64,000 nucleotides of DNA from the IMG/VR virus record IMGVR_UViG_3300035695_000002, positions 32,001 through 96,000 of that record; one strand, 5' to 3'. The translations under genes and the position numbers were made by a program. Below are positions 18,668-63,991 of the stretch, piece after piece. Each line of letters opens with the position of its first letter. Position 1 is the first letter of the stretch. The stretch is from a virus. The notes under the pieces are model-generated. The model made no database searches. It was not told where the DNA came from and saw only the letters and a list, made by a program, of their open reading frames with translations.

Positions 18668-19075
18668 TTACTCCTGTGTTAATAAATACAAAGTGAGAGC
18701 ACATTTAGCACTCAGTTTTTGACTATTTAGTTCTACACCACAATACATCTTATCTTCTCCAAATTCATATACAGCATGGCTATATTCTTCTAATGCTTTC
18801 ACTGTTTCTATAGCTGTTGCTTTTGAGGAAGGGGATTCTGTTTTAAATCCCTCTATAGTTTTCCCTTCATATCCCATTAATTGCTCTATAATTACATCAG
18901 TTTTTCCTACTAAATAATCATATAAATTTCCTAATGCAATATGCTGCGAATTATTCTTAGTTTTCCAATGAATGAGCTTAATCTGGGCCTGAAAAGTGTG
19001 CAATTTACTTGCAATAGACTCCAATGTAAAATTTTCTTCTTTGGGTTTAACCATTCTTTCTGGAAATATAGCCAT
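18668..19075 (-). CDS. ferritin/Dps-like four-helix bundle protein (DUF5856-like)
   Basis: 'KLIHWKT....HIALG.LYD....D..IE.LMG' and C-terminal 'YLLT'. Start placed at ATG 19075. Confidence 0.75.
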   Translation of the reverse strand: MAIFPERMVKPKEENFTLESIASKLHTFQAQIKLIHWKTKNNSQHIALGNLYDYLVGKTDVIIEQLMGYEGKTIEGFKTESPSSKATAIETVKALEEYSHAVYEFGEDKMYCGVELNSQKLSAKCALTLYLLTQE

Positions 19076-19076
19076 A

Positions 19077-21020
19077 TCAATCAATTATTTCAAATTTTGG
19101 CAAACATACAATAAATTTCCCTTCATATCCTACATCTTTGGCTCTTTTTATAAGTTCTTCCTTGAAGTTTTCAGCAAGTATTACTAGATAATCAGGAGGA
19201 GTTTTTTGTAAATATCTCTTATGTACAATAGGAATTCCTGTACCAGGACTAAATTTCCCTATTTTTTCACTTGTTTCATCTATAATGACATCCATTATAT
19301 CTGTTGTAACATTACAAGCATTTAGAAGAGTGTTGCCTTTAGCACTTGCACCAAAACCGGACAGTTTATATCCCTTTTTCTTTAAGTTTAAAAGGTTTTC
19401 CCCTATAGAGGATATGCTGTCCTTTACCTTAGATTGCCATTTAGAATATAGTTCTAAGGAGGTATATCCTTTTTCATCCTCATTTTTTATGAATTCATGA
19501 ACAGAAGGAGAAACATCGTATCTGGATTCCTGTTTAGCTATTGTAATTCTTATTGTTCCTCCGTGTATATTATGCTTACTCACATCTATAATTTTCATTC
19601 CTAAAGTATCACATAGACTATTAATTGGAGAAATGGAAATATGAGATAAATGTTCGAAATAACATTGGTTCCATTCATTCTCCTCTATAAAGTCTCTAAG
19701 ATAAGGACATTCTATTATTAATATTCCATTAGGAGACAGAACATTTTTAGCTGTCTGTATAAACTCATTAATATTATCAATGTGAGCGAAGACATTGGTT
19801 GCAGAAATTAATTGAGCATTTCCGTATTTGCTAATAATTTCTATTCCTGTTTTTCTACTCCAAAAATCAGCAATTGTAGGAACTCCTATAGATTCTGCAA
19901 TAGCAGCTAGATTCTCAGCAGGATCTACCCCTAACACTTTAATTCCTATTTCTTCCTTAAACTCTTTTAAAAGAGATCCGTCATTAGAGGCTATATCTAT
20001 ATGGAAACTAGAAGATGACAGATGGTATTTTTCCCTTAAATCTTTAGCCATCTTTCTACAATGCTGTAAATATGGTTTATTTACAGAAGATCTATATGTA
20101 TAATAACTATACATCTCCTTAGGATCAATTACTACAGAAAGTTGTGTCAGAAAACACTGCTCACAAACCATCACTTGTAAAGGAAATCTTTGCTTATTTC
20201 TAGCTAATTTAGAAGAAGTTTCCAAGTTGTTGGACAGGGGCATGAGACCTAAATCTAAATATTTAGTTAGTTTTGTAGAATTACATGCTCTACAATGTGT
20301 ATGAGATTTGGCTATTGGGGAATTTGACTTATAATCTATCCATTTCTGGAGATTGAGAGAGGTATCGTAAGGAGTATTAAAACTTGTTTCTGATAGTTTT
20401 ATAGGAGAAACATCAGGATTGCGCTCTTTAGCATAAGAAAATAAAGTTTTTCTCTCTGTACCTAGATTTAATATCCCTATTAATGGACTTATTGAAGCTT
20501 CGTATATTAATGGGGCTATTTTGTCCACATAATCCTTAGAAGCCCATTTATCAATAAATGCTACAGAATAAGAAAATTCATTCTTTCCAAAGGATGTACG
20601 TATAATTAAATGGTTTTTTACAGCATTTACAGAGGCTTCTCCTCCCACTTTAGTCCAAGTATAGAGATTGAAAGGTAGAATAGGATCAGATTCCTTACAG
20701 TTTCCGTGATTTCCTTGATAAACATAGTCAGTGGATAAATATACAAGCCTAATGTCATATTTGGAGCATATAATAGACAGGTTTGCAGCCCCTATTATAT
20801 TAGTTTCAATGGCTTCTCTAGGATTGGTTTCAATAGCTCTATTATCGATTATAGCAGCACTATTTATAATTATATCTGGAGTATGTAGTTTAATAAACTC
20901 TTCAACCTGGCTTAAATTTCGTATATCCACATCATTTTTAGAAGGACATATTAAATTTCCATCAATTTTCTGTAATTCCTTCCCTAATGTCCCATTTCCT
21001 CCAAAAACTACTATTTTCAT
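19077..21020 (-). CDS. fusion of an RmlD-like NDP-4-keto-sugar reductase and an NDP-hexose C-methyltransferase
   Basis: N-terminal SDR domain: GGNGTLG, 'INSAA', STDYVY and YxxxK (YTWTK). C-terminal domain: Zn site CRAC..CEQC, SAM motif 'DIASNDG', 'TNVFAH', 'YFEH', 'HGG' and 'GASAKGNTLLN'. Confidence 0.88.
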   Translation of the reverse strand: MKIVVFGGNGTLGKELQKIDGNLICPSKNDVDIRNLSQVEEFIKLHTPDIIINSAAIIDNRAIETNPREAIETNIIGAANLSIICSKYDIRLVYLSTDYVYQGNHGNCKESDPILPFNLYTWTKVGGEASVNAVKNHLIIRTSFGKNEFSYSVAFIDKWASKDYVDKIAPLIYEASISPLIGILNLGTERKTLFSYAKERNPDVSPIKLSETSFNTPYDTSLNLQKWIDYKSNSPIAKSHTHCRACNSTKLTKYLDLGLMPLSNNLETSSKLARNKQRFPLQVMVCEQCFLTQLSVVIDPKEMYSYYTYRSSVNKPYLQHCRKMAKDLREKYHLSSSSFHIDIASNDGSLLKEFKEEIGIKVLGVDPAENLAAIAESIGVPTIADFWSRKTGIEIISKYGNAQLISATNVFAHIDNINEFIQTAKNVLSPNGILIIECPYLRDFIEENEWNQCYFEHLSHISISPINSLCDTLGMKIIDVSKHNIHGGTIRITIAKQESRYDVSPSVHEFIKNEDEKGYTSLELYSKWQSKVKDSISSIGENLLNLKKKGYKLSGFGASAKGNTLLNACNVTTDIMDVIIDETSEKIGKFSPGTGIPIVHKRYLQKTPPDYLVILAENFKEELIKRAKDVGYEGKFIVCLPKFEIID

Positions 21021-21026
21021 ATTGGT

Positions 21027-22376
21027 TTAATTATGATTTACAAGGCATCCATTTACCTTCTTCCATCTATCCTCTCCATATTTGTCTATTATTCTTTTAA
21101 AATAAGTCCAATCACTACTATGTGACATATCTCCCCATCCACTACCTACAGCCACATCTTTTCTAATAATAACACAGGCAGAGTCTATATATCCTAATTT
21201 AAGCCTTGTATCAATGATTCCGTATTTATATACTTCCCAATTTATACCATTACAAGTTCTTTGATTATTTTCAATTATTGTAGTTTTCTGCCAACTATCA
21301 TAAGAATGGACAAATTGGCTGCAATAGGAGGCCAAAATATAAGGATTTTCAAACCCTTTTAATAAAAACTCACAAAAATGAGGAGAATGAAAATTGTCCC
21401 CGTTCGTTATACATACAAAGGATGTATTAGGAGAGAGAATTTCTAGATTATCTAAAGCAAACTGACGAATAGGATGGCCCCATTGTTGCTTCCTTTCCTC
21501 TGTTTCTATAAATTTAATTCTTTTGTCATTAATAACATCTATCACTTTTCTTAACCCTGTAGAATTTGGACCATCATGTATTAATAAAAGTTCCCAATTC
21601 TTATAAGTTTGATTAATTAAACTACTTACAATTTCTGGAAAAGTGTCAAAAATAGGGCAAATAAATGTAATTTTGTTCTCTTCTGAAGGGGGATTTAGGT
21701 CTATAACAATAGGAAGTTCTGGAAATATTTCTTTATGTTCTTTTTCCCTTCTTTTAAATCTTAATTTTCCATATATACCATCATGTCCTGAGTCCCATAG
21801 AGGGGAGGTTTCTATATTATCTACCTGAGCTATTCTACCTATCTTGACTATTTGCTCAAATAATGTAACTGTCTTACTCTTCCTTTTATGCTCAAATTCA
21901 TAACATTCTTCTTTATTTGTTATAATAGGAACAGCAAATGTAATATTAACTAAATCTCTTTTTCTAAGCATAAATCCTGTAGTACGTATATGTTGAGTTA
22001 CTTCTTGACTCAATTCATAACATACACAGGATACATCTTCCTTAAAGGGATATAGAAACCTTTGTATAAACTCCTTATTCATAGGGAGTAAATCGTCTGT
22101 ACACCATAAGAGATAGTCAAATTCTGTAGGAAACCCATCCAATCTTCCTCTACATACATCTTGAAAAGCCCCTATATCAAATCCTATATTAACTCTGGGA
22201 ACATATGTGATATTATTCTTTTTGCACAATTTTTCATATTCATTCTTATCGTTAATATTAACATAATTATGAATAATAACTAATTGGGCATCTGTAGTGT
22301 TACATTGATTCCAACATCTTATCCATTCCTGAACATTATTAAGTCTATTATGTACAATAACAGAAACAACCACCAT
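21027..22376 (-). CDS. two-domain glycosyltransferase (RgpF/rhamnan-synthesis-like N-terminus plus GT2 C-terminus)
   Basis: N-terminal 'R.NIGFDIGAF', 'TDD', 'HIRT' and 'FE'. C-terminal 'SLINQTY.NWELLLIHDG', 'WGH..R', 'NGDN', 'ID', 'DW' and 'HN'. Confidence 0.8.
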   Translation of the reverse strand: MVVVSVIVHNRLNNVQEWIRCWNQCNTTDAQLVIIHNYVNINDKNEYEKLCKKNNITYVPRVNIGFDIGAFQDVCRGRLDGFPTEFDYLLWCTDDLLPMNKEFIQRFLYPFKEDVSCVCYELSQEVTQHIRTTGFMLRKRDLVNITFAVPIITNKEECYEFEHKRKSKTVTLFEQIVKIGRIAQVDNIETSPLWDSGHDGIYGKLRFKRREKEHKEIFPELPIVIDLNPPSEENKITFICPIFDTFPEIVSSLINQTYKNWELLLIHDGPNSTGLRKVIDVINDKRIKFIETEERKQQWGHPIRQFALDNLEILSPNTSFVCITNGDNFHSPHFCEFLLKGFENPYILASYCSQFVHSYDSWQKTTIIENNQRTCNGINWEVYKYGIIDTRLKLGYIDSACVIIRKDVAVGSGWGDMSHSSDWTYFKRIIDKYGEDRWKKVNGCLVNHN

Positions 22377-22411: not shown

Positions 22412-22588
22412 TTAAGGATGGGAGGTAGTTGTAGTCAAAGGATCACAACAAGTGTATCCTTGTATCTGTCTCCATTTACCCACCTTGGGCATCTTTAATC
22501 TTCCAATTAAGGAACCAGCTACATCTCTGCCACTACCATCGATTCTCACATAGAAATTAAGTACTCTCTTGTCTACGCTATTTGCCAT
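22412..22588 (-). CDS. small putative virion protein with a Thr-rich C-terminus (58 aa)
   Basis: Manual translation MANSVDKRVLNFYVRIDGSGRDVAGSLIGRLKMPKVGKWRQIQGYTCCDPLTTTTSHP*; starts immediately after the upstream stop. Confidence 0.7.
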   Translation of the reverse strand: MANSVDKRVLNFYVRIDGSGRDVAGSLIGRLKMPKVGKWRQIQGYTCCDPLTTTTSHP

Positions 22589-22589
22589 T

Positions 22590-23246
22590 TTAATTTAAAT
22601 TTATATTATTTATAATCGAATTATCTTTCTTTACATAAGACCACATATATCCGTTTCTAGGTTTTCTTATATTATTACACCATTTACCTATCGCCTCATG
22701 ACTGTATCCTTCAATTCTTTCGGCCTCCATCGCAGATGAATAGGTTTTAATAAGGTTGTAATCATTATCATATTTATATACTTTCTTACTATTAGGATTC
22801 TCATATCCTTTTTTGTATTTTTCTTTCTGAACCTTACTTAAATATTCTTTTCTGATTTCTGAAAATTTAACACCTTTTCTTGTTGTAAATCTTTTAACGT
22901 TGCCTTGAATATTTAATACATTATATCCATTTTTCAGATATTCAAGAATCAGTTCTTTTTCTCTAATTCTAGCTTCTTCTATATTCTTATATTTTTCTTT
23001 TTCCAACACTCTAAACAATACCTTTTTCTTTTGAATTTTGATTACATCATTCATCCATACATATATTGGGTAATGACTCATTTTTCCTTTTCTTGTATCC
23101 CTAGAGTGAGTCCATGCTCTCCCCATAAAATCTTCTGTTATCCCTATATACACAGATTTATCTTTTATATCTTCTGAATACAGTATATATGTGCTATAGG
23201 GGTTTTCGGGGTAATCTAAATTTACTAATCCATTATATTCCTTCAT
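22590..23246 (-). CDS. GIY-YIG homing endonuclease with a NUMOD C-terminus
   Basis: 'TYILY...VYIGIT....R...H', 'RE..LI......N' and C-terminal 'KKVYKYD...LIKTY.S..EA....G....I..C......GYMWSY'. Confidence 0.8.
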   Translation of the reverse strand: MKEYNGLVNLDYPENPYSTYILYSEDIKDKSVYIGITEDFMGRAWTHSRDTRKGKMSHYPIYVWMNDVIKIQKKKVLFRVLEKEKYKNIEEARIREKELILEYLKNGYNVLNIQGNVKRFTTRKGVKFSEIRKEYLSKVQKEKYKKGYENPNSKKVYKYDNDYNLIKTYSSAMEAERIEGYSHEAIGKWCNNIRKPRNGYMWSYVKKDNSIINNINLN

Positions 23247-24253
23247 AGGTTATATTTCTGTTTTAATTCAATCATTTTCGATACATAGTACCAATTACAG
23301 AGAGTTTTAGACTGTTCATTATTATACACCAGTTCTAAATGAGAGTCCTCAAAAGGATTAGCTCCCATGTGATATTTTCCTTTATAAAAAACAGGAATTT
23401 CTCCTTGTTTCTCTCCTACAATTCCTGCATTATGAAATATAGGACATGTTTCTAATTTAGAAATAGGATCACTGCTCCATGCAAAGTTAAGTTCTTCTAC
23501 TATTCTAGTTTCCTGATTTCTGTCCCATAATCCCCATAGCACAGCCCACATATCAGCACACCAGCTTTGAAACCCTTTATTTTCATTTTCAAAGAAGTAT
23601 TTATTTATTTCCTGGAGATATTGTCTGATTTTGATAGAATCTGTTATTATTTTGTCCCAAAATTGCCAATCTATATTTTTTAACAGATATTGTGCCCCTC
23701 CCGAATTCAAATTATTCTTTTCTGCTATTTCTCTGGAAACTCCTACTAGTTTACAAGCCTCATTTAATATATCCCTAGTTTTATATTGCTCTAGTTTCTC
23801 CGGAATAACATCCTTTATTTTACTATCAAAATAAGAAGCATTTATATAACTTAATGTATTTGAGAGATAACAGACATCATCATTTAAGAACTTATCAATA
23901 TTAAATTTTTCTGTGAAAAGAACATCACAATCACTATAAAATACAGCTTTTTCCTTTAATTCTGGATGTAATTTGAAATATTTCATAAGAATATACGGTC
24001 TTATAAGAGGTATGTATATTCCTAAGAGTTTAGTTATATTGTCTGTATCTTTGTAAAAGAAAAATTCAGATTCTGGGTATAATTCTTTTAATTTATCCCA
24101 TTTAGGGTTTCTATCTCTATAATTAGGGGTAAATATTAGAGAGACAGCTTTATTTGACTTTCCTATTGATTTTAGGCTTTCCAACCATAAATGGGTTTGC
24201 CACCAGTAGTAATCATCACAAGGGGCACATTGCATAAATACTAAATCTCTCAT
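23243..24253 (-). CDS. GT-A fold glycosyltransferase resembling GT95/GT96 peptide O-glycosyltransferases
   Basis: 'YYWWQT.L..ES', 'YIPLIRPY.L..Y', DxD 'YSDCDVLF', 'GGAQYL', 'WCADMWA' and 'FHNAG'. Confidence 0.65.
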   Translation of the reverse strand: MRDLVFMQCAPCDDYYWWQTHLWLESLKSIGKSNKAVSLIFTPNYRDRNPKWDKLKELYPESEFFFYKDTDNITKLLGIYIPLIRPYILMKYFKLHPELKEKAVFYSDCDVLFTEKFNIDKFLNDDVCYLSNTLSYINASYFDSKIKDVIPEKLEQYKTRDILNEACKLVGVSREIAEKNNLNSGGAQYLLKNIDWQFWDKIITDSIKIRQYLQEINKYFFENENKGFQSWCADMWAVLWGLWDRNQETRIVEELNFAWSSDPISKLETCPIFHNAGIVGEKQGEIPVFYKGKYHMGANPFEDSHLELVYNNEQSKTLCNWYYVSKMIELKQKYNL

Positions 24254-24387: not shown

Positions 24388-25893
24388 TTAATCGTTTGTT
24401 GTTTTAGCAGTTAAGAAATATGTAGTTCCTCCTATATTTACAGTGATGGTTCTATTTTGCGCTGTTGGAGAAACAACATTTACAGCACTTTCTGTTATAA
24501 CTCCTTCTCTAGTGGTTCCTGTTCTTGTAAAGAATAAATTAGTTCCATCATATTCCATACATCCAGCCACTGCTGTTGTTAAATTGGTTCCGGAAGTAAA
24601 CTTTAAAGGAGCTAATATTGTTGTTCCTGCTCCTATTACAGCTAGTGCATTTGCTGGCGTTGCTCCTGCTCCTAAACTTGTGATTCCTCGTCTAACTAAA
24701 AGACCGTACTCAATACCAACAACTGCTATAATAGCAGGATTAATATCTAAATATGTGATAGATCCATTTGATCCACCTGTTTGATTTATTGCGGTTGTTA
24801 TTGATACAGCAGTAAATGCTGCAGTACCAGAAGCAGGGCTAAAAAATCCAGCGAAAGATGAACCTGTGATTGCTCCAGAAGTTGGAGTTACTGTATTTCC
24901 TGGGTTAATAGTAATACCGATCCCACTAGTAGCATTCCATGTACTGGGTTGATTAATAATAAACCCTGTATTTACTTGTATTTGATTTGCTACAGCGCTA
25001 GATCCGTTTAGAGTTATACCCCCAACATTACCTAATCCGGCAGCATCATTTATTTTTAATCCGTGAGCTTGAGTTAGTAATATTGCTCCATCTGATGCCA
25101 GTGTCAATCCTCCATTTGTAGAACTACCAGCAACCTTAGATTGAAATATTAAATTAGTAGTAGGGTTTGCAGATCCTTGAACCGGAAGATTATAAATTTG
25201 CCATAATGTTTGAACACTTGCTGTTCCTGTTGTTTTCCACCCCTGACCCTCAAATGTTATTATAGGAGAAATCTGTTGAGCACCTGCTGCTGCTGCTGTG
25301 GAATTTGAAAACCATAAGCCAGCACCATCTACTACAGTAGTTCCTAAAGAAGCAAAGGAATATTTTATAATATTAGTTGTTGTACCTACTATTGTATTTG
25401 GTCCAGATAATGTTCCTCCAGAAGCTAAAAGCCAAGAAAGTCCTGTAGATTGTTTACCATTAAATGTATTCCAATCGGCAGAGGATAAATATCCATTAGT
25501 TGATGTAGTAGCTTGAATAACTTGAATAGTAGTATTTGCTAATAAAGTACTAGATCCTGTTATAGTAAGAACTGCTGAAGTAGCCTCTGTCAAATTACCA
25601 GCAGCAGTGTATGAAGGAGCAGCAGATCCTCCTGTATTATTACCAAACCATGTGTGTGCTCCAGCATTAGACAATGAGAAAGATAGAGATGGAGTAGTGG
25701 TGGGAGTGCCTACAGAAGTAGTAAATAAAGGAGATAGATTTCCACTAGAAAAAGAAGAAACTGTACCTCCTCCACCACCACCTGATATATTAGAAGCTAC
25801 TTGTGTCAACCTTTCCATCTGTTTAGAGATGAAAGATAACCAATATTCTTCTGGTGCTGATTCTGCTCCTATTTGTCTATTAGGTACGGACAT
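24388..25893 (-). CDS. head or tail fibre protein
   Basis: 501 aa rich in G/S/T/A, with a poly-Gly hinge after a short N-terminal helix and the fibre motif 'GYLSSADWNTFNGKQ'. Confidence 0.72.
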   Translation of the reverse strand: MSVPNRQIGAESAPEEYWLSFISKQMERLTQVASNISGGGGGGTVSSFSSGNLSPLFTTSVGTPTTTPSLSFSLSNAGAHTWFGNNTGGSAAPSYTAAGNLTEATSAVLTITGSSTLLANTTIQVIQATTSTNGYLSSADWNTFNGKQSTGLSWLLASGGTLSGPNTIVGTTTNIIKYSFASLGTTVVDGAGLWFSNSTAAAAGAQQISPIITFEGQGWKTTGTASVQTLWQIYNLPVQGSANPTTNLIFQSKVAGSSTNGGLTLASDGAILLTQAHGLKINDAAGLGNVGGITLNGSSAVANQIQVNTGFIINQPSTWNATSGIGITINPGNTVTPTSGAITGSSFAGFFSPASGTAAFTAVSITTAINQTGGSNGSITYLDINPAIIAVVGIEYGLLVRRGITSLGAGATPANALAVIGAGTTILAPLKFTSGTNLTTAVAGCMEYDGTNLFFTRTGTTREGVITESAVNVVSPTAQNRTITVNIGGTTYFLTAKTTND

Positions 25894-28657: not shown

Positions 28658-29290
28658 TTATTTTTTACCCACTTTTAACTCTAATATTTGAGGAATATGT
28701 ACATGAGGATTAGAAGAGGTCATTTCTGAGAAATATTTCTTCTTTCCTAAAAACCATTTCCTTTTCCAATATAATACTCCATCTATAGGAGCATCTACTT
28801 CGTACTTTAGTACTGCACTGTCTGGAGAAACTTGTTTATAATCGAATTTTGACCATTTGTCTTGTTTTTTCCAATCTTTAGCTACAAATTTGATAGTGTC
28901 TCCTTTTTTATCTATATATGTGATAGTTGTGTCTTTTGGATGGATACGTAAACTATCTATAGATTGAGATTGGACTTGGAAAGCATACTCTAGATTTTTA
29001 TAACTTTTCTTTAATCCTTGGAATTCCTTTAGAAAGGAGAGATTTCCATCTTTTACAAGTTGTTTGATTGTGTTATTTTCAAGAACAACAGCTTGGTTTT
29101 TAGCTACTTCTTCCCCTGACTTATTTTTATAATATTGAGTTTTCATTTGCTCTTTACTAAAAAGCTGTTCTACACCCTGTTTTTGAGCCTTTTCTTCTCT
29201 ATATTTGTTGTAAAATGTATAAAGTAGAACACCAGTTATGATTAGCAATAATACTAACCCTGCTTCTATTTTAAGTCTTAAAGATAACAT
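28658..29290 (-). CDS. putative spanin-like membrane-anchored protein
   Basis: N-terminal transmembrane helix then coiled coil, 'KRKWFLG', and a position in the lysis cassette. Confidence 0.55.
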   Translation of the reverse strand: MLSLRLKIEAGLVLLLIITGVLLYTFYNKYREEKAQKQGVEQLFSKEQMKTQYYKNKSGEEVAKNQAVVLENNTIKQLVKDGNLSFLKEFQGLKKSYKNLEYAFQVQSQSIDSLRIHPKDTTITYIDKKGDTIKFVAKDWKKQDKWSKFDYKQVSPDSAVLKYEVDAPIDGVLYWKRKWFLGKKKYFSEMTSSNPHVHIPQILELKVGKK

Positions 29291-29922: not shown

Positions 29923-30429
29923 TTAAACTAATCCATCCCAAGTGGGATCTGTGGATTTAACTATTGAAAATTTATCTAAATTTGGGAGATATTGCCAATG
30001 CCATCTCTCTGATAGTACTGTTCTTACAAAACCGTAAGTTTTAGCATTATGAAACATCCATTTATAGACATCTGGAGGAACATTGAAATCATAAGCATCT
30101 CCGTTTTGATGATTGGAATATCCAGGTTTAGCTGTTCTAGGACTAAATAGTCCATTATCTGCATTTATTAGATATGTCCTATCGTTTATTTTAGTCTTAT
30201 CTATTACATTCCTTTGACGAAATCCATATTGCTCTTCCCAAGTTCTGAATCCTTCATTTAAATGGAGAGTGATATTGTCCTTTTTAGCACCGTTAATGAT
30301 TGATTGTACAAAAGAAAGATAAGAATTAACGACCTTTTTACCATCAATTAAGGAAATCCCCTCATATCTTAGGAGTTTTCCATTGTCATATAAGGCATAT
30401 TCTCCTTTTCCGTTTTGAGATTCTATCAT
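29923..30429 (-). CDS. endolysin, peptidase M15B (VanY-like)
   Basis: 'GFRTWEEQ', 'AKPGYSNHQNG.AYD' (SxHxxGxAxD), 'NA..YGF' and 'ERWHWQY'. Confidence 0.88.
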   Translation of the reverse strand: MIESQNGKGEYALYDNGKLLRYEGISLIDGKKVVNSYLSFVQSIINGAKKDNITLHLNEGFRTWEEQYGFRQRNVIDKTKINDRTYLINADNGLFSPRTAKPGYSNHQNGDAYDFNVPPDVYKWMFHNAKTYGFVRTVLSERWHWQYLPNLDKFSIVKSTDPTWDGLV

Positions 30430-30933: not shown

Positions 30934-32298
30934 TTAGCTCCAATTTCCCACATTTGTTACAGAATTAGTACCTACAGGCCAAATTCTGAAATAAGAATTC
31001 ACTCCCACTATGGCTGCTGAGGCTACACCTAAGCTAACTTGAGGAATTAGTGTTCCTCCTGCATTGATTCTCACAATTCCCCATATTCTAGCATGACCTG
31101 TAGTAGTGGTATTAGCTGCACTTATAGCAACATTGGCTGCCGTATTAAATGATATTAAAGGAGCACTAGCTGTAGCTAAAGTACTTTTAGTAGCTGAAGA
31201 TTGCCAAGTTTGTGAGGTAAATGTAGCCGTTCCTCCAAAAGAAAAACCAAAAGCCCCTGACGTAGAGGACATGGAAGTTAAGGAGAAAAAACACTCAAAA
31301 TAGTAAGATTTTGAACTTGATACTGTTAAAGCCCCATTAGTGGAAGAATTAAACAGTTTTTGTGCTGCTGTTTGAGATGTAAGAGTATATGCTCCTGTTA
31401 AGGATATGAATTGTTCACTGTCTACTACAGATCTTTCACTGGTAGCATGAGTCCAATATCGGATACCGTTAGCATCCACTTCTCCTACACCTGCTATTGC
31501 TGATGTTAATAAAGCAGCACTTGTTAATATAAAAGTTTCTGCTCCAAAAGAAGCAGTTCCAGCAGCATGTATTAATACACCAGGATTAAATGTCTTATTT
31601 CCTGTAACTGTTTGTACAGAGGCTAATACCATATCTCCACTACCACTAGGAGACCCCCAACTTACATTAGATCCATCTGTAGTGAGATATTTTCCTGTAT
31701 TTCCTATTTGAGAAGGTAGAAGATTGGTTATAGCTCCTGCACCGAAAGATGTAAGAGAAGAAGCAGTGACTCCTGATGCTAATGTGATTCCTGTTAATGT
31801 TCCTGCTGCTGCTGCGATAGTAATATTTCCACTACCATCAAAACTTACACCATTAATAGTTCTTGCAGTCTGTAACACTGTAGCACTACCAGCGTTTCCT
31901 GTAATTGTAGTGATTGTTATATTTGATGATAGAGCACTTCCATTAATAGTCCTGGAAGAAGGAACAGCATCTGTAATACCATATCCTCCTAATGTAGTTG
32001 GAATAGAAGTTAAACTACCAAAAGCTAGTGAACTTATAGTTGCGAAAGTTCCAAGTCCTAAATTGCTTCTAGCTGTTGTATAATTACTGAGTCCTGATAA
32101 ATTATCAGTTTTCATCATATCTCCATATGTAGGAGTTGATACAAAAACTGACCCATTCCAATATCTTACAGCATTTAAATCTGTATTATATATCACTACA
32201 TCATGAGAATCTAGAAGCAATTGTTGGGCAAAAGCATCCTCTTGAGATTGTGTATAATCTGTTATTAATTGTAACGCTTTTGTTAATCTTACAGACAT
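30934..32298 (-). CDS. tail fibre protein
   Basis: Probable start MSVRLTK (32298). Fibre motifs 'NLS.L....ARSNLGLG', 'PTTLGGYGITDA', two 'RTING' repeats, 'GKYLTTDG..VSW' and 'QTVTGNKTF'. Confidence 0.82.
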   Translation of the reverse strand: MSVRLTKALQLITDYTQSQEDAFAQQLLLDSHDVVIYNTDLNAVRYWNGSVFVSTPTYGDMMKTDNLSGLSNYTTARSNLGLGTFATISSLAFGSLTSIPTTLGGYGITDAVPSSRTINGSALSSNITITTITGNAGSATVLQTARTINGVSFDGSGNITIAAAAGTLTGITLASGVTASSLTSFGAGAITNLLPSQIGNTGKYLTTDGSNVSWGSPSGSGDMVLASVQTVTGNKTFNPGVLIHAAGTASFGAETFILTSAALLTSAIAGVGEVDANGIRYWTHATSERSVVDSEQFISLTGAYTLTSQTAAQKLFNSSTNGALTVSSSKSYYFECFFSLTSMSSTSGAFGFSFGGTATFTSQTWQSSATKSTLATASAPLISFNTAANVAISAANTTTTGHARIWGIVRINAGGTLIPQVSLGVASAAIVGVNSYFRIWPVGTNSVTNVGNWS

Positions 32299-32300
32299 TG

Positions 32301-32612
32301 TTATGGATGTGTCGTAGTAGTGGTAGTTGTGGAAATAATATCTACAATTCCCCAATCTGGAGAGGTAATAGAAAGTCCTACATAAAGTATAGGAATACAA
32401 GTATCTAGGTAGAATTCCCCTACATAGGTTGGTACAAATGTGGGAGCACCGCAACCCGTATCTGGGGGGATAGCATTATTAATCTTCCCCAAAATTACAT
32501 CTAAGGCATCTAAAGGAGCTACTCCTAAGTTAGTCAGGTAGTCTCCATCATATATAATGCATTTAGCATTAATATATGTAGCACATGTGTCACAAATAGC
32601 AGCAGTTCTCAT
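32301..32612 (-). CDS. small Cys-rich putative structural protein with a poly-Thr tail
   Basis: 'C..C.....KCIIYDG..L..LG....D.L..IL.KIN', ending STTTTTTTHP. Start placed at ATG 32612. Confidence 0.68.
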   Translation of the reverse strand: MRTAAICDTCATYINAKCIIYDGDYLTNLGVAPLDALDVILGKINNAIPPDTGCGAPTFVPTYVGEFYLDTCIPILYVGLSITSPDWGIVDIISTTTTTTTHP

Positions 32613-32618
32613 AATGTA

Positions 32619-32648
32619 CAAAAATAGGTTAAATTAATGAAATTTCAA
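32619..32648 (-). promoter_or_regulatory. Bacteroidota -33/-7 promoter
   Basis: Minus-strand TTG-N19-TATTTTTG ending 6 nt before the ATG. Confidence 0.65.
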
Positions 32649-57560: not shown

Positions 57561-58433
57561 TTATAAATAACTTATTTGTGCAGGTGCTACAAGGAATTGA
57601 CTAACTACGTGAATGTCACTACGATTATCCAAAATTTGTCTAACTTTCAAATCTTTAGCTCTAATTGTAAATTTCTTAAATGATTGAGATGTATATATCA
57701 TATTACTCTGATTCAGTTCTTTATCTATAGAAAGAGACTGACAAGAATTTATAAATAAAGGAATAGTTTTATCTTTTACAACATCCCAAAATGTATTATA
57801 TTGATAGAAGTTGTCTCTTTTAGAGAACAGGATGGTTTTACTATCTGTGTTATATTTGGGATAGGAAAGATAAGCTTTCAGGTTATTTTGAGGTTTATCA
57901 ACTAATTGTAATACACCTGAAGACTGTTGATCGTTGTAAATGATGCTTTTGTTAAAGTAATCACTATCAGTTTCTATCTTTCTATTGTAATTAAATACTC
58001 CATCGTCTGTAGAAAGGTATTTATACACCTTGGTGTAATCCTTTACATTTTGTACAATTTCATCATGATATTGATAAGCAAAAGGATATTCTATTATATA
58101 AGGAGCAATACATCCATAGAAGTTGTTATACAACACAGGATTGGTAAGATGTCTCCATAATGAAGAAGTATTAGCTTCCTGAAACTTCATGGCTGCTAAG
58201 TCTATCTGTGTTATTGTAGATACCGGAATATTCCATGTTTTAGAACAGCAATTTATTCCTGTAGAACTAAGAATTATTACATTAACGGAAGCATCTATTA
58301 TAAACGCTACTCCTGAAATAAGGTCAGCTTTGGACACATTGGTGGCTAGTACATTCCCCAAATCATCAGAGATGGAGAATGTAGATAGCCTGTTTCCAGC
58401 TTTTTTTAGCTTTATAATAATTCTATTAGTCAT
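57561..58433 (-). CDS. putative tail structural protein (possible C-terminal part of a split stabilization/muzzle protein)
   Basis: About 290 aa, beta-rich, with 'SLWRH...YNNFYG...PYIIEY' and 'FNKSIIYNDQQSSG.L.L'; TAATG-coupled to the upstream gene. Confidence 0.6.
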   Translation of the reverse strand: MTNRIIIKLKKAGNRLSTFSISDDLGNVLATNVSKADLISGVAFIIDASVNVIILSSTGINCCSKTWNIPVSTITQIDLAAMKFQEANTSSLWRHLTNPVLYNNFYGCIAPYIIEYPFAYQYHDEIVQNVKDYTKVYKYLSTDDGVFNYNRKIETDSDYFNKSIIYNDQQSSGVLQLVDKPQNNLKAYLSYPKYNTDSKTILFSKRDNFYQYNTFWDVVKDKTIPLFINSCQSLSIDKELNQSNMIYTSQSFKKFTIRAKDLKVRQILDNRSDIHVVSQFLVAPAQISYL

Positions 58434-59095
58434 TAGCAAGCATATGGGTTAACACAAGCAGTAGAAAGCACAATCGTTACCGTTGTACCGCCTATTACAA
58501 TTGTATCCCCGTTATGTTTAGTAGAACCATTTACTACAATTGAATTAAATCTTCTATATGAAAGAGTTCCGCAAGTCATAGGACTAGAACCACTACCCAT
58601 TCCTGAAGTAGAACCAGCAGGTATTGTTAATGTTCCAACTAACGCATCGCTCTCATTAAAAGGAGAACAAGCTCCTAAATCAGATCCATTAACCGTAGCA
58701 GAGGTTATATTTACCGCAGTAGAAGGAATGGCTGCTGACAAATCAAAGAAGAAATTGCCACTTTGATAACTAGTAAATGTCAAATTAGCAGTTCCTGGAT
58801 CAGGAGGAATTGTTGTAGTAGTTGTAGTAGTGCTTGTACTAGAAGTAGATGTTGTGGTGGTAGTAGTCAAAGAAATTGGTAAATCTACATAATTAGTACA
58901 TAATGCACTAGTCGATTTAACCCTTATTGTAGTAGCTGCATCAGGAACTAATACAGAAGTATATCCTGCTAAAAGAGAAGCTTTTGAAACTCCTGCTTCA
59001 AAAGCAGACAAATATCCGTCCACATTTGAATATAGATCAAAGGGACCTGTATCAGTTCCTGCTACTGTTAATGTTATTAATACTGTTTGTGCCAT
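58433..59095 (-). CDS. putative virion decoration protein: two beta domains joined by a Thr/Ser tract
   Basis: 'VLITLT.AG.DTGPF.LYS' N-terminal domain, then TTTTTTSTSSTSTTTTTTT, then a Cys-containing beta domain. Confidence 0.68.
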   Translation of the reverse strand: MAQTVLITLTVAGTDTGPFDLYSNVDGYLSAFEAGVSKASLLAGYTSVLVPDAATTIRVKSTSALCTNYVDLPISLTTTTTTSTSSTSTTTTTTTIPPDPGTANLTFTSYQSGNFFFDLSAAIPSTAVNITSATVNGSDLGACSPFNESDALVGTLTIPAGSTSGMGSGSSPMTCGTLSYRRFNSIVVNGSTKHNGDTIVIGGTTVTIVLSTACVNPYAC

Positions 59096-59107
59096 ATTTT
59101 TATATTT

Positions 59108-62100
59108 TTATAAACAAGCCATTGATGCACATGAATCGTGCGGTGTATAATTAAAGATGTTATTATCAGCAGGAGCATTTGTAATTGCTACTATTGAACA
59201 TACATTCCCATCATCCAGATAATAGAATTTTCCAATAACCACAGGGTTGACTGCTGTTATAACTCCTGCCCCCAAAGGATTGCAAATAGAACAAGCAAAT
59301 ATATTCACTGAATATTTTGCTTCTTGTAAAGCTGTTCCCTCTAACCCACAATCTGGAGCTATTGTAGTAGTGGTAGACGTTGTTGTTGTAGTTCCTAATG
59401 CAAATCCTTCTACATCACAATTGGGTGTATAAGCAGATCCAGCTAATCCACAATTGTATACAACTGTGGTTGTAGTGGTTGTAGTAGGAGATTGTACTTC
59501 TATAGCAGCTATTGCTTCTAAATCACATCCTTCATTTAATCCAGAATAGAAGAAATTATTCTCTGCTATATAGAAATTAGGAATATAACTATGGAAACTT
59601 GTCCAACTTTGTGTATTTACATTATATGAAAGAGTCCATGATTTATTACAGAAATACGTAATATCCGTTAAATCTACTTTTTTCCTGATTATAATAGGAG
59701 ATAAGGTGGTAGTAGAAGTAGTGGTAGCAGGATGAATTAATGTTGTTGTAGTGGATGTGGTTGGAGATTCTTGAGGATAGATTAAATCTATATAAAACTC
59801 CTGTAATACACTATCATACTTTATATCCTTACTTAATGGAATATAGTCTAATTTTGATATTATTACTCTATCAAACTTACTATCATATACCCCATGTAAC
59901 CCTATTCCATTGAAATGATTATCTGTATTTACATTAGGGAAATATCTTAATATTTCAAATGCTAGATGGTCTGTGAAAAATCTATTCATTCCACTACCAA
60001 AAGCAGACAAATCACTAACTCCATTTCCTGATACAAGAAATACTTGTCCTCTTTTGGCATCTATGGTTATCTGTCCTTGGGGGATTTTTAACAAAAGTTT
60101 ATTCTGACTCCCCACATATCCTAAGTCTGTCTCTGCAAAATCTATAGGAGGACTACTTCTAAATAATGTACTATTTCCCAGATAAGCAGCTTGGGGGTTG
60201 CTTGTATCAATTGTGAGTAAAGTATTGTATAACAAGCTCTTGTTCTCAAATCTAGCTAAAATGGCCTTATTTTGTATACCATCTAAAGATGTTAATTTTC
60301 CATAATTCTGAGGAAAATCAAAATAAGAAGATGCTCTATATATTAACCAACTATTTATCCTATTATCTGTAAAAGACTGTTGAGGATCTGAATATACTGT
60401 TCTAAATGGAAAATGTGTAAAACACAATTGTTGTGTCCAATTTAAAGGAAGATGTGTAAACAAATTTTCCTTATTCTGCTTGGAATAAGACACATTGTAG
60501 TAATATGTATTATCGAATATAATAGGAACAAAGCTCTCTTGTACCCAATCATCAGGAATATCAGTACTTACATGAGGAAAGAAATCTCCTTCTCTATTAT
60601 TAAACGCTTGTCTTAAATCCACATTCACACTGGATTCGCAATAAAATGTAGGAATTCCATAAGCAAACATGTACATTTTACCATCGTAATAAGTTCTTCC
60701 AGGGTTTACCACTGGAGGAGTAATGGTAGGATTTGGTGCAGGAAGTTGATTATTTGGACAATCTAAATAATGAGCTTTTATAGATATTAGATTTTTACCA
60801 TAAATACCTGCAAACTTGTAATCATATAGAACAGACCTAGCAGAATGCCAATATTGAGGATAGGCCACATTCCCTATTTCATCATAGAAAATATCACTAT
60901 CATCAGGAGCACCCACTCTATTATCTATAAAGAATGGAAGCTTTGTTTTGAATGAAAATCTATTAATAAAGGTATCTCCTCCAAATATAGTAACATCTGT
61001 AGGAGCACCGTTCAATATATCTTGTGTATTTACAAGAGTTTGAAATCCTGTATCAATAGTATCATAAGAGTACATTTGACCCCATTGATTGAGAATAATA
61101 TCCTTAAGTGATCCATAGTAAGAAACTACACTTATATCAAACTGTTTTTGAGGATTTGAACAGTCTTGTTGAGAGTTTACATATCTAGACTTATCTTCTA
61201 TAGCACTTGTACTGTCTGGAAGGGTTAAAGAAGGAGTTTGGCTAGCAAATGGTAATGGAGTAGTAGTTCCTTTAGTTTTTAGATATAAAGAGGATTCTCT
61301 ATTGTAATTATTGATAATATGAGTATCTCCAAGAGACTCTACAACAGGAATAAGATATTGGCATATATCTAGTTCTCTTTGCTTAATTCCCAGATTATTG
61401 TCTATTTCAGCATTATAATTATAACTTGCTATTGAATTATAACTCCATCCATAATTTCTTCTAGTTATTCCATTTACATAAATGGTAAGGTATGCCTGAT
61501 AAGCAGTGAACATTGCTGTAGCATTGAAAGGAGCTGTTATATTTGCTATGTTATAACTAGAATTTAAAGCATCTTCTTGAGCCTCCTTTGTAAGAAGTTT
61601 ATACAATGCATTTTTCTTCACTTCTACAAAATGTCCTTTTCCTGCTCCAAATACAACATCTTCTAATTTTAAGACTGTTCCTAGAAAAGGTTGTCCAAAT
61701 GATGTTTCTGGAGAATTTAATACATATCTATATTTACTATCATCAGTGGTAAAAGCTGAAAGATTATTAGGATAGCAAAGAATATTCTTAAATGTGTTTA
61801 CTTGTTGTATTGTTCCAAAACTAAACGGCCATAATGTAGGAACTGTTCCTTCTTTTACTAATATAGTGGCAGGAGAATTTAGATACACAAGTATAGTTTG
61901 TGGATTATTGTCTACATCAATATAAGCAAATGTAGAATAACCTATACTAGATGTAAGAAGATATGTATCTGAGCTTATTACAACTATTGGAGCTGTATAA
62001 GTTCCTGTCAATATTACAGGAAGAGTTAAAGAACATACTGTTATAGTAGTACCAGCAGTCATTGTTGCTACAGTAGTAGTATTGGTAAAACAGTCAGTGT

Positions 62101-63991
62101 ATTGATATGTTCCATCTCCTGTAACTGCAAACTTATAAGTATAACATAATGCATTAAAAGCATTAGGTTTTTCTAATAAGAAAGGATCTTCTCTTAAGTC
62201 ATTATAAGGATAGTTAGCGAAAAAATAATCTGTTCCTTCTCTTGTGTATTTTCCTACATTCCTTAATATACCTTTTGCTATTATGGATTTGTTAGTACTT
62301 CTATCTCCTCTTACTATCTTAAATCCTGCAATACTATCCTTTTGGTCTTGTGTTAGATTGGAAGCAATTATAAATTGCCATACTTGCTCTATATTAAGTT
62401 TTACCCCTATAGGGAAAATAGCAGATTTCTCCATCACTGGAGTAATAGGAGATCCTGAAGTGTATAAAGAGCTTTCGAATATAGGACTAACTAAAACATC
62501 TGGAAACTTGTGATGTCTTATAGGTTGACCAGCCAATTCTCCCCATACATCACTGTTACATGGGTAGGTCTCTGTGGATTCCCAGTATGAGAATTTTCCA
62601 TACTGATATGGACCTTTATAAGAAGGATCAGAAGTAAAACCTCCATCAGTAGCTATAACACTTCCTGTATTATATATCTGCCAATATGGCAAACTATTAG
62701 TTAATGGATTAGGAGTCCCTATAAAATCAGGATTGGTAGAAGGAACGTCTAATAAATCAAGAGCTTCTGCCACTCTACCTGGAATATGAAAACCATCTGT
62801 TTGCTTACCGTTCTTTAAAAGGAAAACAATCTCAAATGGATAGATTTCGTCTCTTAAGTATCCTCTTAAATTAGTAGCATTTAACTCATCTGCATAGTTT
62901 TCCGTAGAAGGAATTCTATAAGTTTCCCAGAATAGTGTAATTTTACTAGCAATTTGTTGGTAATTTATCCTATCTATAGATGTAAGTTGATCCCACACTA
63001 ATATATCTTGTACATTAGTCACATCTTGAGCAACATCATAAAAAGGAAACTTCTCAAATATATCTGCTATAGTTAACTGTACTTGTGTCTGATTCTGACC
63101 ACTATATATGATTTGTTTTCTTATATTATCTATAGTGTAAGTTCCTATAAGTTGAACAGATGGTACACCATTAATAGTCTTTATTACAGCTACATTGAAA
63201 TATTGAAAGTATCCTGTAGCATCTATATTCGAAATATCCAGCACAATAGACTTGTTTACATTATAATTGAAATTTAATGTATCTATTTGAGGATTTGCTA
63301 AAGGAACAGGATTTGTAACAGAATAATAGGATGTATAAGCATCTCCTGCTACATCACAGTATTGAATAGCAAACTGATAAGTTCCTGCCAAATTGTCACC
63401 TCCATTTATAACATCTACTACTTGTAGATTAGGAATAGCAAAATTAGGCTGTATTTTAAGCTTATTACAATCTATTTGTTTAAAAGTCTTTACATCACAA
63501 ATAGTACTTTCTATTAACGTTCTATAAGGAATCTTGTTTAGATCAAGAAATCTTCTAGGATTTATACCATCTGTCCAATATATCTCTGTAGAACAGTTAG
63601 TTATTTTATGTACTATTTTATGAATAGGATGATTGATGTCAAAATTTAAACAATTATCCTCTATATAAGTATGATAGAGACAATCATTGTTATCCATGTA
63701 TCCTATCTGAGAATCTCCTGTATTAGGATTTACTAAGAAGAATATGTGTTTATTTTGTTCCTGAATGAAATGATTACCTATAAGTTTGAAATCTTCAGGA
63801 AATTGTAAACATAAGTTATTTCCTTGTTCATTTTGATAGGATATACTATTAGCATCAAAGTTTTCAACTGCTCCATTTAAAGAGTACGTAGTTTGTCCTT
63901 TAGGGATTTGATTCATAGAACTATCCATGTTCATTCCTGTTCTAAGAGCATTGTTCTCTTGTCTTATATTAGATTCTTGTTGATCAGCCAC
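59108..63991 (-). CDS. tail stabilization (muzzle-like) protein
   Basis: 1627 aa with a GTG start and motifs 'GMNMD', 'IYWTDGINP.R', 'GYLRDEIY.F.I', 'IRHHKFPD', 'FGGDTFI', 'W.LSY....W.SFHSY.P'; lies upstream of the cargo genes. Confidence 0.75.
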   Translation of the reverse strand: MADQQESNIRQENNALRTGMNMDSSMNQIPKGQTTYSLNGAVENFDANSISYQNEQGNNLCLQFPEDFKLIGNHFIQEQNKHIFFLVNPNTGDSQIGYMDNNDCLYHTYIEDNCLNFDINHPIHKIVHKITNCSTEIYWTDGINPRRFLDLNKIPYRTLIESTICDVKTFKQIDCNKLKIQPNFAIPNLQVVDVINGGDNLAGTYQFAIQYCDVAGDAYTSYYSVTNPVPLANPQIDTLNFNYNVNKSIVLDISNIDATGYFQYFNVAVIKTINGVPSVQLIGTYTIDNIRKQIIYSGQNQTQVQLTIADIFEKFPFYDVAQDVTNVQDILVWDQLTSIDRINYQQIASKITLFWETYRIPSTENYADELNATNLRGYLRDEIYPFEIVFLLKNGKQTDGFHIPGRVAEALDLLDVPSTNPDFIGTPNPLTNSLPYWQIYNTGSVIATDGGFTSDPSYKGPYQYGKFSYWESTETYPCNSDVWGELAGQPIRHHKFPDVLVSPIFESSLYTSGSPITPVMEKSAIFPIGVKLNIEQVWQFIIASNLTQDQKDSIAGFKIVRGDRSTNKSIIAKGILRNVGKYTREGTDYFFANYPYNDLREDPFLLEKPNAFNALCYTYKFAVTGDGTYQYTDCFTNTTTVATMTAGTTITVCSLTLPVILTGTYTAPIVVISSDTYLLTSSIGYSTFAYIDVDNNPQTILVYLNSPATILVKEGTVPTLWPFSFGTIQQVNTFKNILCYPNNLSAFTTDDSKYRYVLNSPETSFGQPFLGTVLKLEDVVFGAGKGHFVEVKKNALYKLLTKEAQEDALNSSYNIANITAPFNATAMFTAYQAYLTIYVNGITRRNYGWSYNSIASYNYNAEIDNNLGIKQRELDICQYLIPVVESLGDTHIINNYNRESSLYLKTKGTTTPLPFASQTPSLTLPDSTSAIEDKSRYVNSQQDCSNPQKQFDISVVSYYGSLKDIILNQWGQMYSYDTIDTGFQTLVNTQDILNGAPTDVTIFGGDTFINRFSFKTKLPFFIDNRVGAPDDSDIFYDEIGNVAYPQYWHSARSVLYDYKFAGIYGKNLISIKAHYLDCPNNQLPAPNPTITPPVVNPGRTYYDGKMYMFAYGIPTFYCESSVNVDLRQAFNNREGDFFPHVSTDIPDDWVQESFVPIIFDNTYYYNVSYSKQNKENLFTHLPLNWTQQLCFTHFPFRTVYSDPQQSFTDNRINSWLIYRASSYFDFPQNYGKLTSLDGIQNKAILARFENKSLLYNTLLTIDTSNPQAAYLGNSTLFRSSPPIDFAETDLGYVGSQNKLLLKIPQGQITIDAKRGQVFLVSGNGVSDLSAFGSGMNRFFTDHLAFEILRYFPNVNTDNHFNGIGLHGVYDSKFDRVIISKLDYIPLSKDIKYDSVLQEFYIDLIYPQESPTTSTTTTLIHPATTTSTTTLSPIIIRKKVDLTDITYFCNKSWTLSYNVNTQSWTSFHSYIPNFYIAENNFFYSGLNEGCDLEAIAAIEVQSPTTTTTTTVVYNCGLAGSAYTPNCDVEGFALGTTTTTSTTTTIAPDCGLEGTALQEAKYSVNIFACSICNPLGAGVITAVNPVVIGKFYYLDDGNVCSIVAITNAPADNNIFNYTPHDSCASMACL

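Follow-up and report, generated by a model that had tools for sequence, protein, structure and literature searches.

A crAss-like phage glycosyltransferase encoded beside poly-threonine-tailed proteins, and its probable role in virion glycosylation

Here, we describe a glycosyltransferase gene in the IMG/VR virus record IMGVR_UViG_3300035695_000002, together with the runs of threonine (Thr) found in proteins encoded around it and elsewhere in the same genome. The DNA studied, referred to as "the window", comprises bases 32001-96000 (64 kb) of this record, which is complete, is 120,724 bp long, and has direct terminal repeats. Matches to PHROG families, including a giant "virion structural protein" (phrog_37948), identify the virus as a crAss-like phage; the genes for the terminase, portal, and major head protein lie just beyond the window. 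The glycosyltransferase gene (hereafter, the transferase) is followed by a gene for a homing endonuclease and by a gene for a small protein with a Thr-rich C-terminus, and is preceded by a gene for a fibre-like protein (Table 1). We consider it likely that the transferase puts the first sugar onto Thr residues of the poly-Thr tags that some of the phage's particle proteins carry. We discuss what is known about the enzyme family, its association with Thr runs, and alternative functions.

The transferase, its family, and its predicted fold

The transferase is 336 amino acids (aa) long. The original prediction, made by reading the DNA alone, named six motifs, and all six are present in the open reading frame (ORF): YYWWQT (residues 15-20), YIPLIRPYIL (80-89), DCD (108-110), GGAQYL (185-190), WCADMWA (231-237), and FHNAG (273-277). 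The blocks to which they belong are conserved among relatives. In an alignment of 66 sequences, the members of which are 30-50% identical to the query, residues Y80, D108, D110, Y136, F257, H274, and K291 are invariant, and the blocks Y.WQ, RP, GGAQ, Q.WC.DMW, and HNAG are nearly so. Because they are conserved across this alignment, the motifs are not a chance feature of a single sequence. D108 and D110 are also invariant in 79 bacterial homologues. Chromosomal homologues with two domains and a length of ~500-580 aa occur in Chitinophaga, Pedobacter, Sphingobacterium, Mucilaginibacter, and Elizabethkingia; their N-terminal half belongs to the transferase family.

The family is large. The transferase matches phrog_4417, annotated as "unknown function", at 2.2e-50; there are 751 family representatives at E ≤ 0.001 in a library clustered at 50% identity, and 2511 family proteins among 3815 candidates in a library clustered at 90% identity. 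Among the 120 relatives listed from the latter library, none has a Pfam domain, and the sole name given is "hypothetical protein". A tblastn search with the transferase matched 77 phage records, all at <60% identity, with hosts that include Lactobacillus (23 records), Enterococcus (21), Staphylococcus (11), and Lactococcus (8); Chryseobacterium phage MA9V-3 was also matched. By sequence, the transferase has no match in Pfam (E ≤ 1), NCBIfam, or the PDB, and a profile search of the PDB returned only two irrelevant chains (designed or thioredoxin-like).

An AlphaFold2 model built on the 66-sequence alignment has a predicted local distance difference test score (pLDDT) of 97.9 and a predicted template modelling score (pTM) of 0.94. 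It consists of one globular domain that spans all 336 residues, i.e., a single Rossmann-like α/β/α domain that matches solved GT-A enzymes. The nearest solved folds are enzymes of the GT8/GT24 families, at 8-13% sequence identity, with LgtC, WbbM, and LARGE1 among the top structural matches; Foldseek returns these families as well (E about 1e-6, template modelling [TM] score 0.38-0.49). The retaining GT-A enzymes of GT8 and GT24 that resemble it most are glycogenin, LgtC, the Skp1 alpha-galactosyltransferase, GlyE of the pneumococcal serine-rich-repeat pathway, and the catalytic domain of UGGT; relative to glycogenin, the transferase has about 80-100 extra residues. In a library of viral models, only two true relatives score well, and the next matches are GT8-like proteins of giant viruses. 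PBCV-1 A64R, the GT-A enzyme of a eukaryotic virus that contributes to the capsid glycan of chloroviruses, has a structural score below those of the GT8/GT24 enzymes. The PBCV-1 glycans are N-linked at non-canonical sites. The Pfam family for GT8 (Glyco_transf_8) has no match on the transferase (E ≤ 1), nor is it among the families matched by the sets of 66, 76, and 79 relatives. The transferase is therefore nearest to the GT8/GT24 group, yet by no sequence test is it a member.

Since the modelled fold matches GT-A enzymes and the protein has a DxD motif, a late His, and a late Lys, its predicted structure identifies it as a GT-A glycosyltransferase with these catalytic-type residues. Its chemistry is probably retaining, judging by the ranking of similar folds. 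The enzyme was also predicted to lack a membrane anchor, and this is borne out: the best 19-residue Kyte-Doolittle mean is 1.09, all hydrophobic segments are too short to anchor the protein in a membrane, and the model is a single globular domain.

Threonine runs in tail, head, and fibre proteins

The transferase gene is genomically coupled to genes that encode poly-Thr. One case is that of the Enterococcus-phage tail protein exemplified by phiFL1A gp50. In phiFL1A, the transferase gene begins at the stop codon of the gene for gp50, the major tail protein, which has the C-terminus T5-S-T6-SS-T7; the likely capsid protein, gp45, also terminates in Thr runs. We compared 27 IMG/VR homologues of the gp50 core that are 65-100% identical. 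A poly-Thr tail (T6-T7) is present in 12 of the 27, and in 12/12 of these the transferase gene lies 0-6 nt downstream. The remaining 15 homologues lack the tail, and a transferase gene within 6 kb was found for 0/15. A maximum-likelihood tree of the tail proteins was built from the gp50 cores only, after removal of the tails. On it, the joint trait (Thr tail plus transferase) requires four changes, and at least three of these changes are forced by well-supported branches. As negative controls, neither phiFL3A nor phiFL4A encodes the transferase or any ORF with a run of five Thr.

Similar arrangements occur in other cultured phages. In iLp84, the transferase gene comes after genes for the major head protein, which ends in T7SK, and for a small Thr-run protein; the iLp84 major tail protein likewise ends in T7SK. 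In Chryseobacterium phage MA9V-3, two genes upstream of the transferase encode long Thr/Ser tracts.

Broader surveys show the same association. Using a 12-sequence sub-alignment of the transferase family, we collected 80 viral loci. An ORF with a run of at least five Thr is present in 61/80, and in 53/80 such an ORF ends ≤500 bp upstream of the transferase on the same strand. Homopolymer runs in these loci are dominated by Thr, which forms runs in 89 ORFs, versus 18 for Gly and no more than four for every other residue. A second set comprises 80 loci from the phage's own lineage, with enzymes 59-87% identical to the transferase. In this set, a homologue of the small Thr-tailed 58-aa protein is encoded downstream of the transferase in 74/74 loci for which at least 1500 nt of downstream sequence is available. 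These homologues are 49-78% identical to the 58-aa protein, with a run of at least four Thr in 67/74 loci and of at least five in 63/74, and in most relatives a gap of 2-21 nt separates the transferase stop codon from the start of this gene. On the other side of the transferase, an ORF with at least five consecutive Thr ends within 2 kb upstream in 52/68 own-lineage loci.

The genome studied here is itself rich in Thr runs. There are five runs of at least five Thr, as compared with a mean of 0.15 (maximum three) in 1000 within-protein shuffles, and 10 runs of at least four, as compared with a mean of 1.3 (maximum five). The proteins that carry the runs are the product of a 106-aa ORF, a 220-aa protein, a 1627-aa virion protein, and a 385-aa protein. 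The 106-aa and 58-aa proteins have a common T(n)-[S]HP ending, while the virion protein has four Thr runs (T4 to T7) within its last ~215 residues. The 58-, 106-, 220-, and 385-aa Thr-tagged proteins have no Pfam or PHROG family. The tail-fibre ORF next to the 106-aa ORF is listed as 506 aa long with a TTG start, which makes the two overlap by 154 nt; the fibre protein more likely starts at Met 53 of the listed ORF (MSVRLTK...), immediately past the stop codon of the 106-aa ORF.

The 385-aa protein is encoded in the head module. It was identified as an outer-capsid auxiliary protein by fold only, with nothing found by a sequence search of the PDB or by tblastn against phages. It has ~25 extra Thr/Ser-rich residues at its C-terminus, with a fixed VWP in the middle of the tail (TTTSTTTTVWPTTSTTST), and the last 24 residues are unstructured in its model. 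This extra tail, CITTTSTTTTVWPTTSTTSTLTP, is retained in 56 of the 57 homologues read; these come from 57 of 80 loci, the other 23 having been removed by an ORF filter. By comparison, ΦcrAss001 has no match to the transferase family profile (E ≤ 10), no ORF with a run of four or more Thr, and a gp36 without the tag, in a scan that covered 100,000 of 102,679 bp.

Genes around the transferase

The genes immediately around the transferase are mostly on the same strand, and several have products that may act on sugars (Table 1). At its stop codon, the transferase gene overlaps by 4 nt with the gene for the GIY-YIG homing endonuclease. Homologues of the endonuclease gene are found 2 nt past the transferase stop codon in five related loci (L218-L220, L237, and L269), and elsewhere in four more. 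The endonuclease gene is an insertion, and is no part of the proposed glycosylation system. On the upstream side, the Ser/Thr/Gly/Ala/Asn-rich 501-aa protein has no Pfam or PHROG family, and its homologues are encoded upstream of the transferase in several relatives.

Two further genes downstream encode candidate partners of the transferase. The first, a 449-aa glycosyltransferase, is a candidate chain-extending enzyme on the basis of its domain content. It has a syntenic same-strand homologue (77% identity) only in L193, the relative with an 87%-identical transferase; five other loci have only 22-27% matches, encoded on the opposite strand and 2.7-7 kb away. The second, a 647-aa fusion, may similarly be a supplier of an unusual donor sugar. 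It matches RmlD_sub_bind (2.3e-32), Methyltransf_13 (1.5e-18), and Methyltransf_14 (1.4e-42), as well as the rmlD model TIGR01214 (9.8e-31, under the cut-off), with the RmlD-like part covering the first ~150 residues of the profile. Among the 80 relatives, the fusion is found only in the closest, L193, and no RmlA/B/C-type genes were seen among its scanned neighbours. Because synteny is limited to this closest relative, the 449-aa enzyme and the 647-aa fusion are lineage-specific accessories. Further away, on the other strand, the overlapping 252- and 191-aa ORFs each match the N-terminal half of the Glycos_transf_2 profile and may be further glycan-building enzymes.

Two further observations concern other parts of the window. 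The tail-spike and tail-fibre genes are separated by genes for a protein with a VanY-type D-Ala-D-Ala carboxypeptidase domain and for a DUF6549 protein, which probably form a lysis module. A 4030-aa ORF has no PHROG match at E ≤ 0.01, and lies among giant ORFs of 1864, 1364, and 1627 aa; presumably, these four encode crassvirus-type cargo or virion RNA-polymerase proteins.

Table 1. Position of the transferase gene and other features, numbered from the first base of the window except where genome coordinates are indicated
Feature	Position	Strand	Remarks
Two overlapping GT2-domain ORFs, 252 and 191 aa	16264..17566	+	Glycos_transf_2 1.1e-08 and 3.2e-07
138-aa DUF5856 protein	18668..19084	-	PF19174 1.5e-11; downstream in most related loci
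647-aa fusion, RmlD-like NDP-sugar reductase and Zn-binding sugar C-methyltransferase	19077..21020	-	Pfam matches (see text)
449-aa glycosyltransferase, C-terminal GT2 domain	21027..22376	-	Pfam Glycos_transf_2 8.3e-09, residues 244-378
58-aa protein ending ...CCDPLTTTTSHP	22412..22588	-	Conserved small Thr-tailed family; candidate acceptor
GIY-YIG homing endonuclease	22590..23246	-	Pfam GIY-YIG 3e-06; sits between the transferase and the small Thr-tailed gene
Transferase, predicted soluble GT-A glycosyltransferase, 336 aa	23243..24253	-	phrog_4417 family; ATG-started intact ORF
501-aa Ser/Thr/Gly/Ala/Asn-rich fibre-like protein	24388..25893	-	Directly upstream of the transferase; possible acceptor
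DUF6549 protein	28658-29290	-	
VanY-type D-Ala-D-Ala carboxypeptidase domain protein	29923-30429	-	6.5e-10
506-aa tail-fibre ORF, as listed	30934-32454	-	
106-aa ORF ending ...STTTTTTTHP	32301..32621	-	Directly before the tail-fibre gene
4030-aa ORF	38746-50838	-	
220-aa protein with internal TTTTTTSTSSTSTTTTTTT tract	58433..59095	-	
1627-aa virion structural protein	59108..63991	-	phrog_37948 4.1e-112; phrog_15100 1.9e-36
385-aa protein, homologue of crassvirus auxiliary capsid protein gp36	genome 104219-105376 (L353:8222-9376)	-	8.2 kb beyond the window end

Function, alternatives, and known systems

Because comparative genomics couples the transferase to Thr-rich tails, these tails are the putative acceptor, and O-glycosylation of Thr-rich peptides by the transferase is well supported by gene arrangement across phages. 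In the mechanism we propose, a cytoplasmic, metal-dependent, probably retaining GT-A enzyme would use a host nucleotide sugar, and would transfer the first sugar to Thr hydroxyls before or during particle assembly; the poly-Thr tags that receive it would be exposed, disordered parts of head, tail, and fibre proteins. In the phage studied here, several proteins are candidate acceptors: those of 58 and 106 aa with T(n)-[S]HP endings, that of 220 aa, the 1627-aa protein in its C-terminal part, and the 385-aa outer-capsid auxiliary protein in its ~25-residue Thr/Ser tail. In this lineage, the GT2 neighbours and the reductase/C-methyltransferase fusion may then extend or diversify the glycan. The outcome would be a mucin-like coat on the head and fibres, with a possible role in shielding or adhesion.

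Several observations weigh against this proposal. The glycan, donor, and acceptor are predictions for the whole family, read from genes and models, and the retaining chemistry is predicted from the ranking of folds. Among the candidate acceptors, the 58-aa protein of this phage holds only four Thr, and the model of the 385-aa protein is of moderate quality (pLDDT 66.7). The coupling of transferase and poly-Thr is not universal: 19 of the 80 viral loci in the first set have no ORF with five consecutive Thr in the sequence available, such an ORF is present in only 15 of 80 bacterial-genome loci (adjacent to the transferase in 11 of these 15), and most cellular homologues, i.e., those in Chitinophaga, Pedobacter, and Sphingobacterium, are two-domain transferases without Thr-tagged neighbours. 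Lastly, the 80 loci in each viral set are fairly close relatives, so the counts do not represent independent events.

The first alternative is that the transferase builds a glycan, i.e., an oligosaccharide, a lipid-linked intermediate, or a polymer of the host surface, and that its proximity to poly-Thr genes reflects shared late or structural operons. The Bacteroidota homologues point in this direction: of the 79 bacterial proteins, 31 are fused to a second GT-A domain of the Glyco_transf_7C family and 7 to one of the Glyco_tranf_2_2 family. Since these two-domain cellular proteins have no Thr-tagged neighbours, the fold also serves another role, probably that of glycan building. Other long homologues are fused to GT2, GT32-like, or methyltransferase domains, the transferase itself clusters with four other glycosyltransferase domains and a sugar-modifying enzyme in the window, and several of its top structural matches (LgtC, WbbM, and LARGE1) act on glycans. 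However, placement alone leaves unexplained the contrast between tailed (12/12) and tail-less (0/15) gp50 homologues and the three or more joint changes on the tail-protein tree, and it gives no account of why strong enrichment among homopolymers is confined to Thr. Moreover, in phiFL1A the transferase is the only annotated sugar-related gene in the 12.8-kb structural region seen, where it sits behind the tagged tail protein. We therefore regard a role confined to glycan building as unlikely.

A second alternative follows from the original prediction, which held that the enzyme resembles the plant peptide O-glycosyltransferases HPAT (GT95) and SERGT1 (GT96). A true member of these families would be expected to act on hydroxyproline (Hyp) or serine in Pro-rich motifs. 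The comparison has merit at the level of function: HPAT1-3 and SGT1/SERGT1 do the same kind of job that we propose here, adding the first sugar to hydroxy amino acids within repetitive peptides. HPATs have been described as GT8-related (PMC4908140), and GT8 is the top solved fold for the transferase. There is also a faint signal for PF23452, the Pfam family of HPAT. It occurs below threshold in 2 of the 66 relatives (best E 0.012) and in 1 of the 76 (0.045), and is the sole Pfam family that recurs in both sets at E ≤ 0.1. Among 24,736 models, this recurrence exceeds chance, with no match near the Pfam cut-off of 23.9 bits, which is reached by no family member. Of the 30 nearest named clusters among language-model neighbours in the ESM-Atlas, 22 carry PF23452, six carry DUF7164, and GT8 is listed for none; in the two clusters shown, PF23452 is on 10% and 58% of members, and such matches are leads only.

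By contrast, PF23452 has no match on the transferase (E ≤ 1) or in the whole genome (E ≤ 10), and it was found in 0/10 further relatives (E ≤ 1) and 0/79 bacterial homologues (E ≤ 0.01). A search for the same family found nothing in five genomes that hold homologues of the transferase, nor in a sample of 401 + 401 genomes drawn from two phyla; 14 control genomes were likewise silent, so this negative is weak. The setting of the enzyme also differs from that in plants. The transferase is soluble, whereas HPAT and SERGT1 are anchored in the Golgi; the tags beside it are Thr runs, rather than the Ser-Hyp motifs that provide Hyp or Ser acceptors for the plant enzymes; and the complete phage genome has no prolyl-hydroxylase-type 2OG-Fe(II) domain (PF13640, E ≤ 1), unlike the Hyp-making setting of HPAT. 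In one study, GT95 is predicted to have a GT-A-like fold, and GT96 a novel, non-GT-A fold (PMC8476585), which counts against the SERGT1 half of the claim. Thus, the description of a soluble phage GT-A enzyme holds, and comparative genomics adds a probable Thr-rich acceptor, while specific membership of GT95 or GT96 is unlikely, and unproven as it was put forward. The idea that the transferase is a plant-type enzyme acting on Hyp or Ser is, in our judgement, quite improbable; remote kinship to HPAT is a weak lead.

The last alternative, that the transferase glycosylates a hydroxymethylated or hydroxylated pyrimidine in phage DNA, as in the T-even and RB69 systems, is suggested by the frequency of DNA modification among phage transferases and by the large lytic phages among the carriers of homologues, and is very improbable, because the complete genome has 0 matches to the thymidylate-synthase family, which would supply a hydroxylated base (E ≤ 1; the control was positive in 10 of 14 genomes), and the candidate RB69 arabinosyltransferase is predicted to be GT-B rather than GT-A (PMC6024577); homologues are also encoded among the head and tail genes of small temperate phages. 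On the same prediction for the RB69 enzyme, DNA arabinosyltransferases of this type were rejected as relatives of the transferase.

Glycosylation of poly-Thr tags on the particle would have a precedent. By analogy, the described system that comes nearest is the glycosylation of mycobacteriophage virions. Two articles (PMC12619734 and PMC12363180, through which Freeman et al. 2023 is cited) describe phage-encoded virion glycosylation for Che8 gp110, Corndog gp38, and Myrna, in which capsid and tail-tube subunits bear glycans at their C-termini and the particle is shielded as a result. As described there, the logic is the same, i.e., an enzyme paired with a C-terminal tag on head and tail subunits. 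Phages of Mycobacterium account for 0/77 of the tblastn records of the transferase family, so by sequence the enzyme family is distinct from that of the mycobacteriophage system. The pairing of a phage poly-Thr tag with a glycosyltransferase was not found in full-text searches, which covered mostly non-subscription journals. Phage virion glycosylation is therefore a known kind of system; the transferase family is uncharacterised, and a poly-Thr acceptor tag would appear to be both new and simple.

A broader picture can be drawn more tentatively. It is conceivable, if doubtful, that an undescribed, mucin-like poly-Thr O-glycan system is widespread and that the transferase family, as carried by viruses of prokaryotes, is the sister group of the GT95 enzymes of plants and algae. 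Were both parts of this picture to hold, it might extend from crassviruses of Bacteroidota to siphophages of enterococci, lactobacilli, lactococci, and staphylococci, and might link extensin-type glycosylation to phage and bacterial enzymes, a reach that we also consider speculative. The evolutionary link to plant enzymes would be of wider interest, and is currently a lead only.

If the proposed function of the transferase is correct, many phages would acquire a dense sugar coat from one small enzyme and a short, portable Thr tag. The carriers would include gut- and environment-type crassviruses, as well as phages whose hosts are Gram-positive bacteria from dairy or clinical settings. A coat of this kind would influence antibody recognition, adhesion to mucus or host surfaces, and particle stability. 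It would also affect the interpretation of cryo-electron microscopy (cryo-EM) maps, in which disordered tails go unseen. For glycoengineering, the system would provide a simple pair of enzyme and tag. Because the pairing occurs in the cultured phages phiFL1A, iLp84, and MA9V-3, the hypothesis is directly testable.

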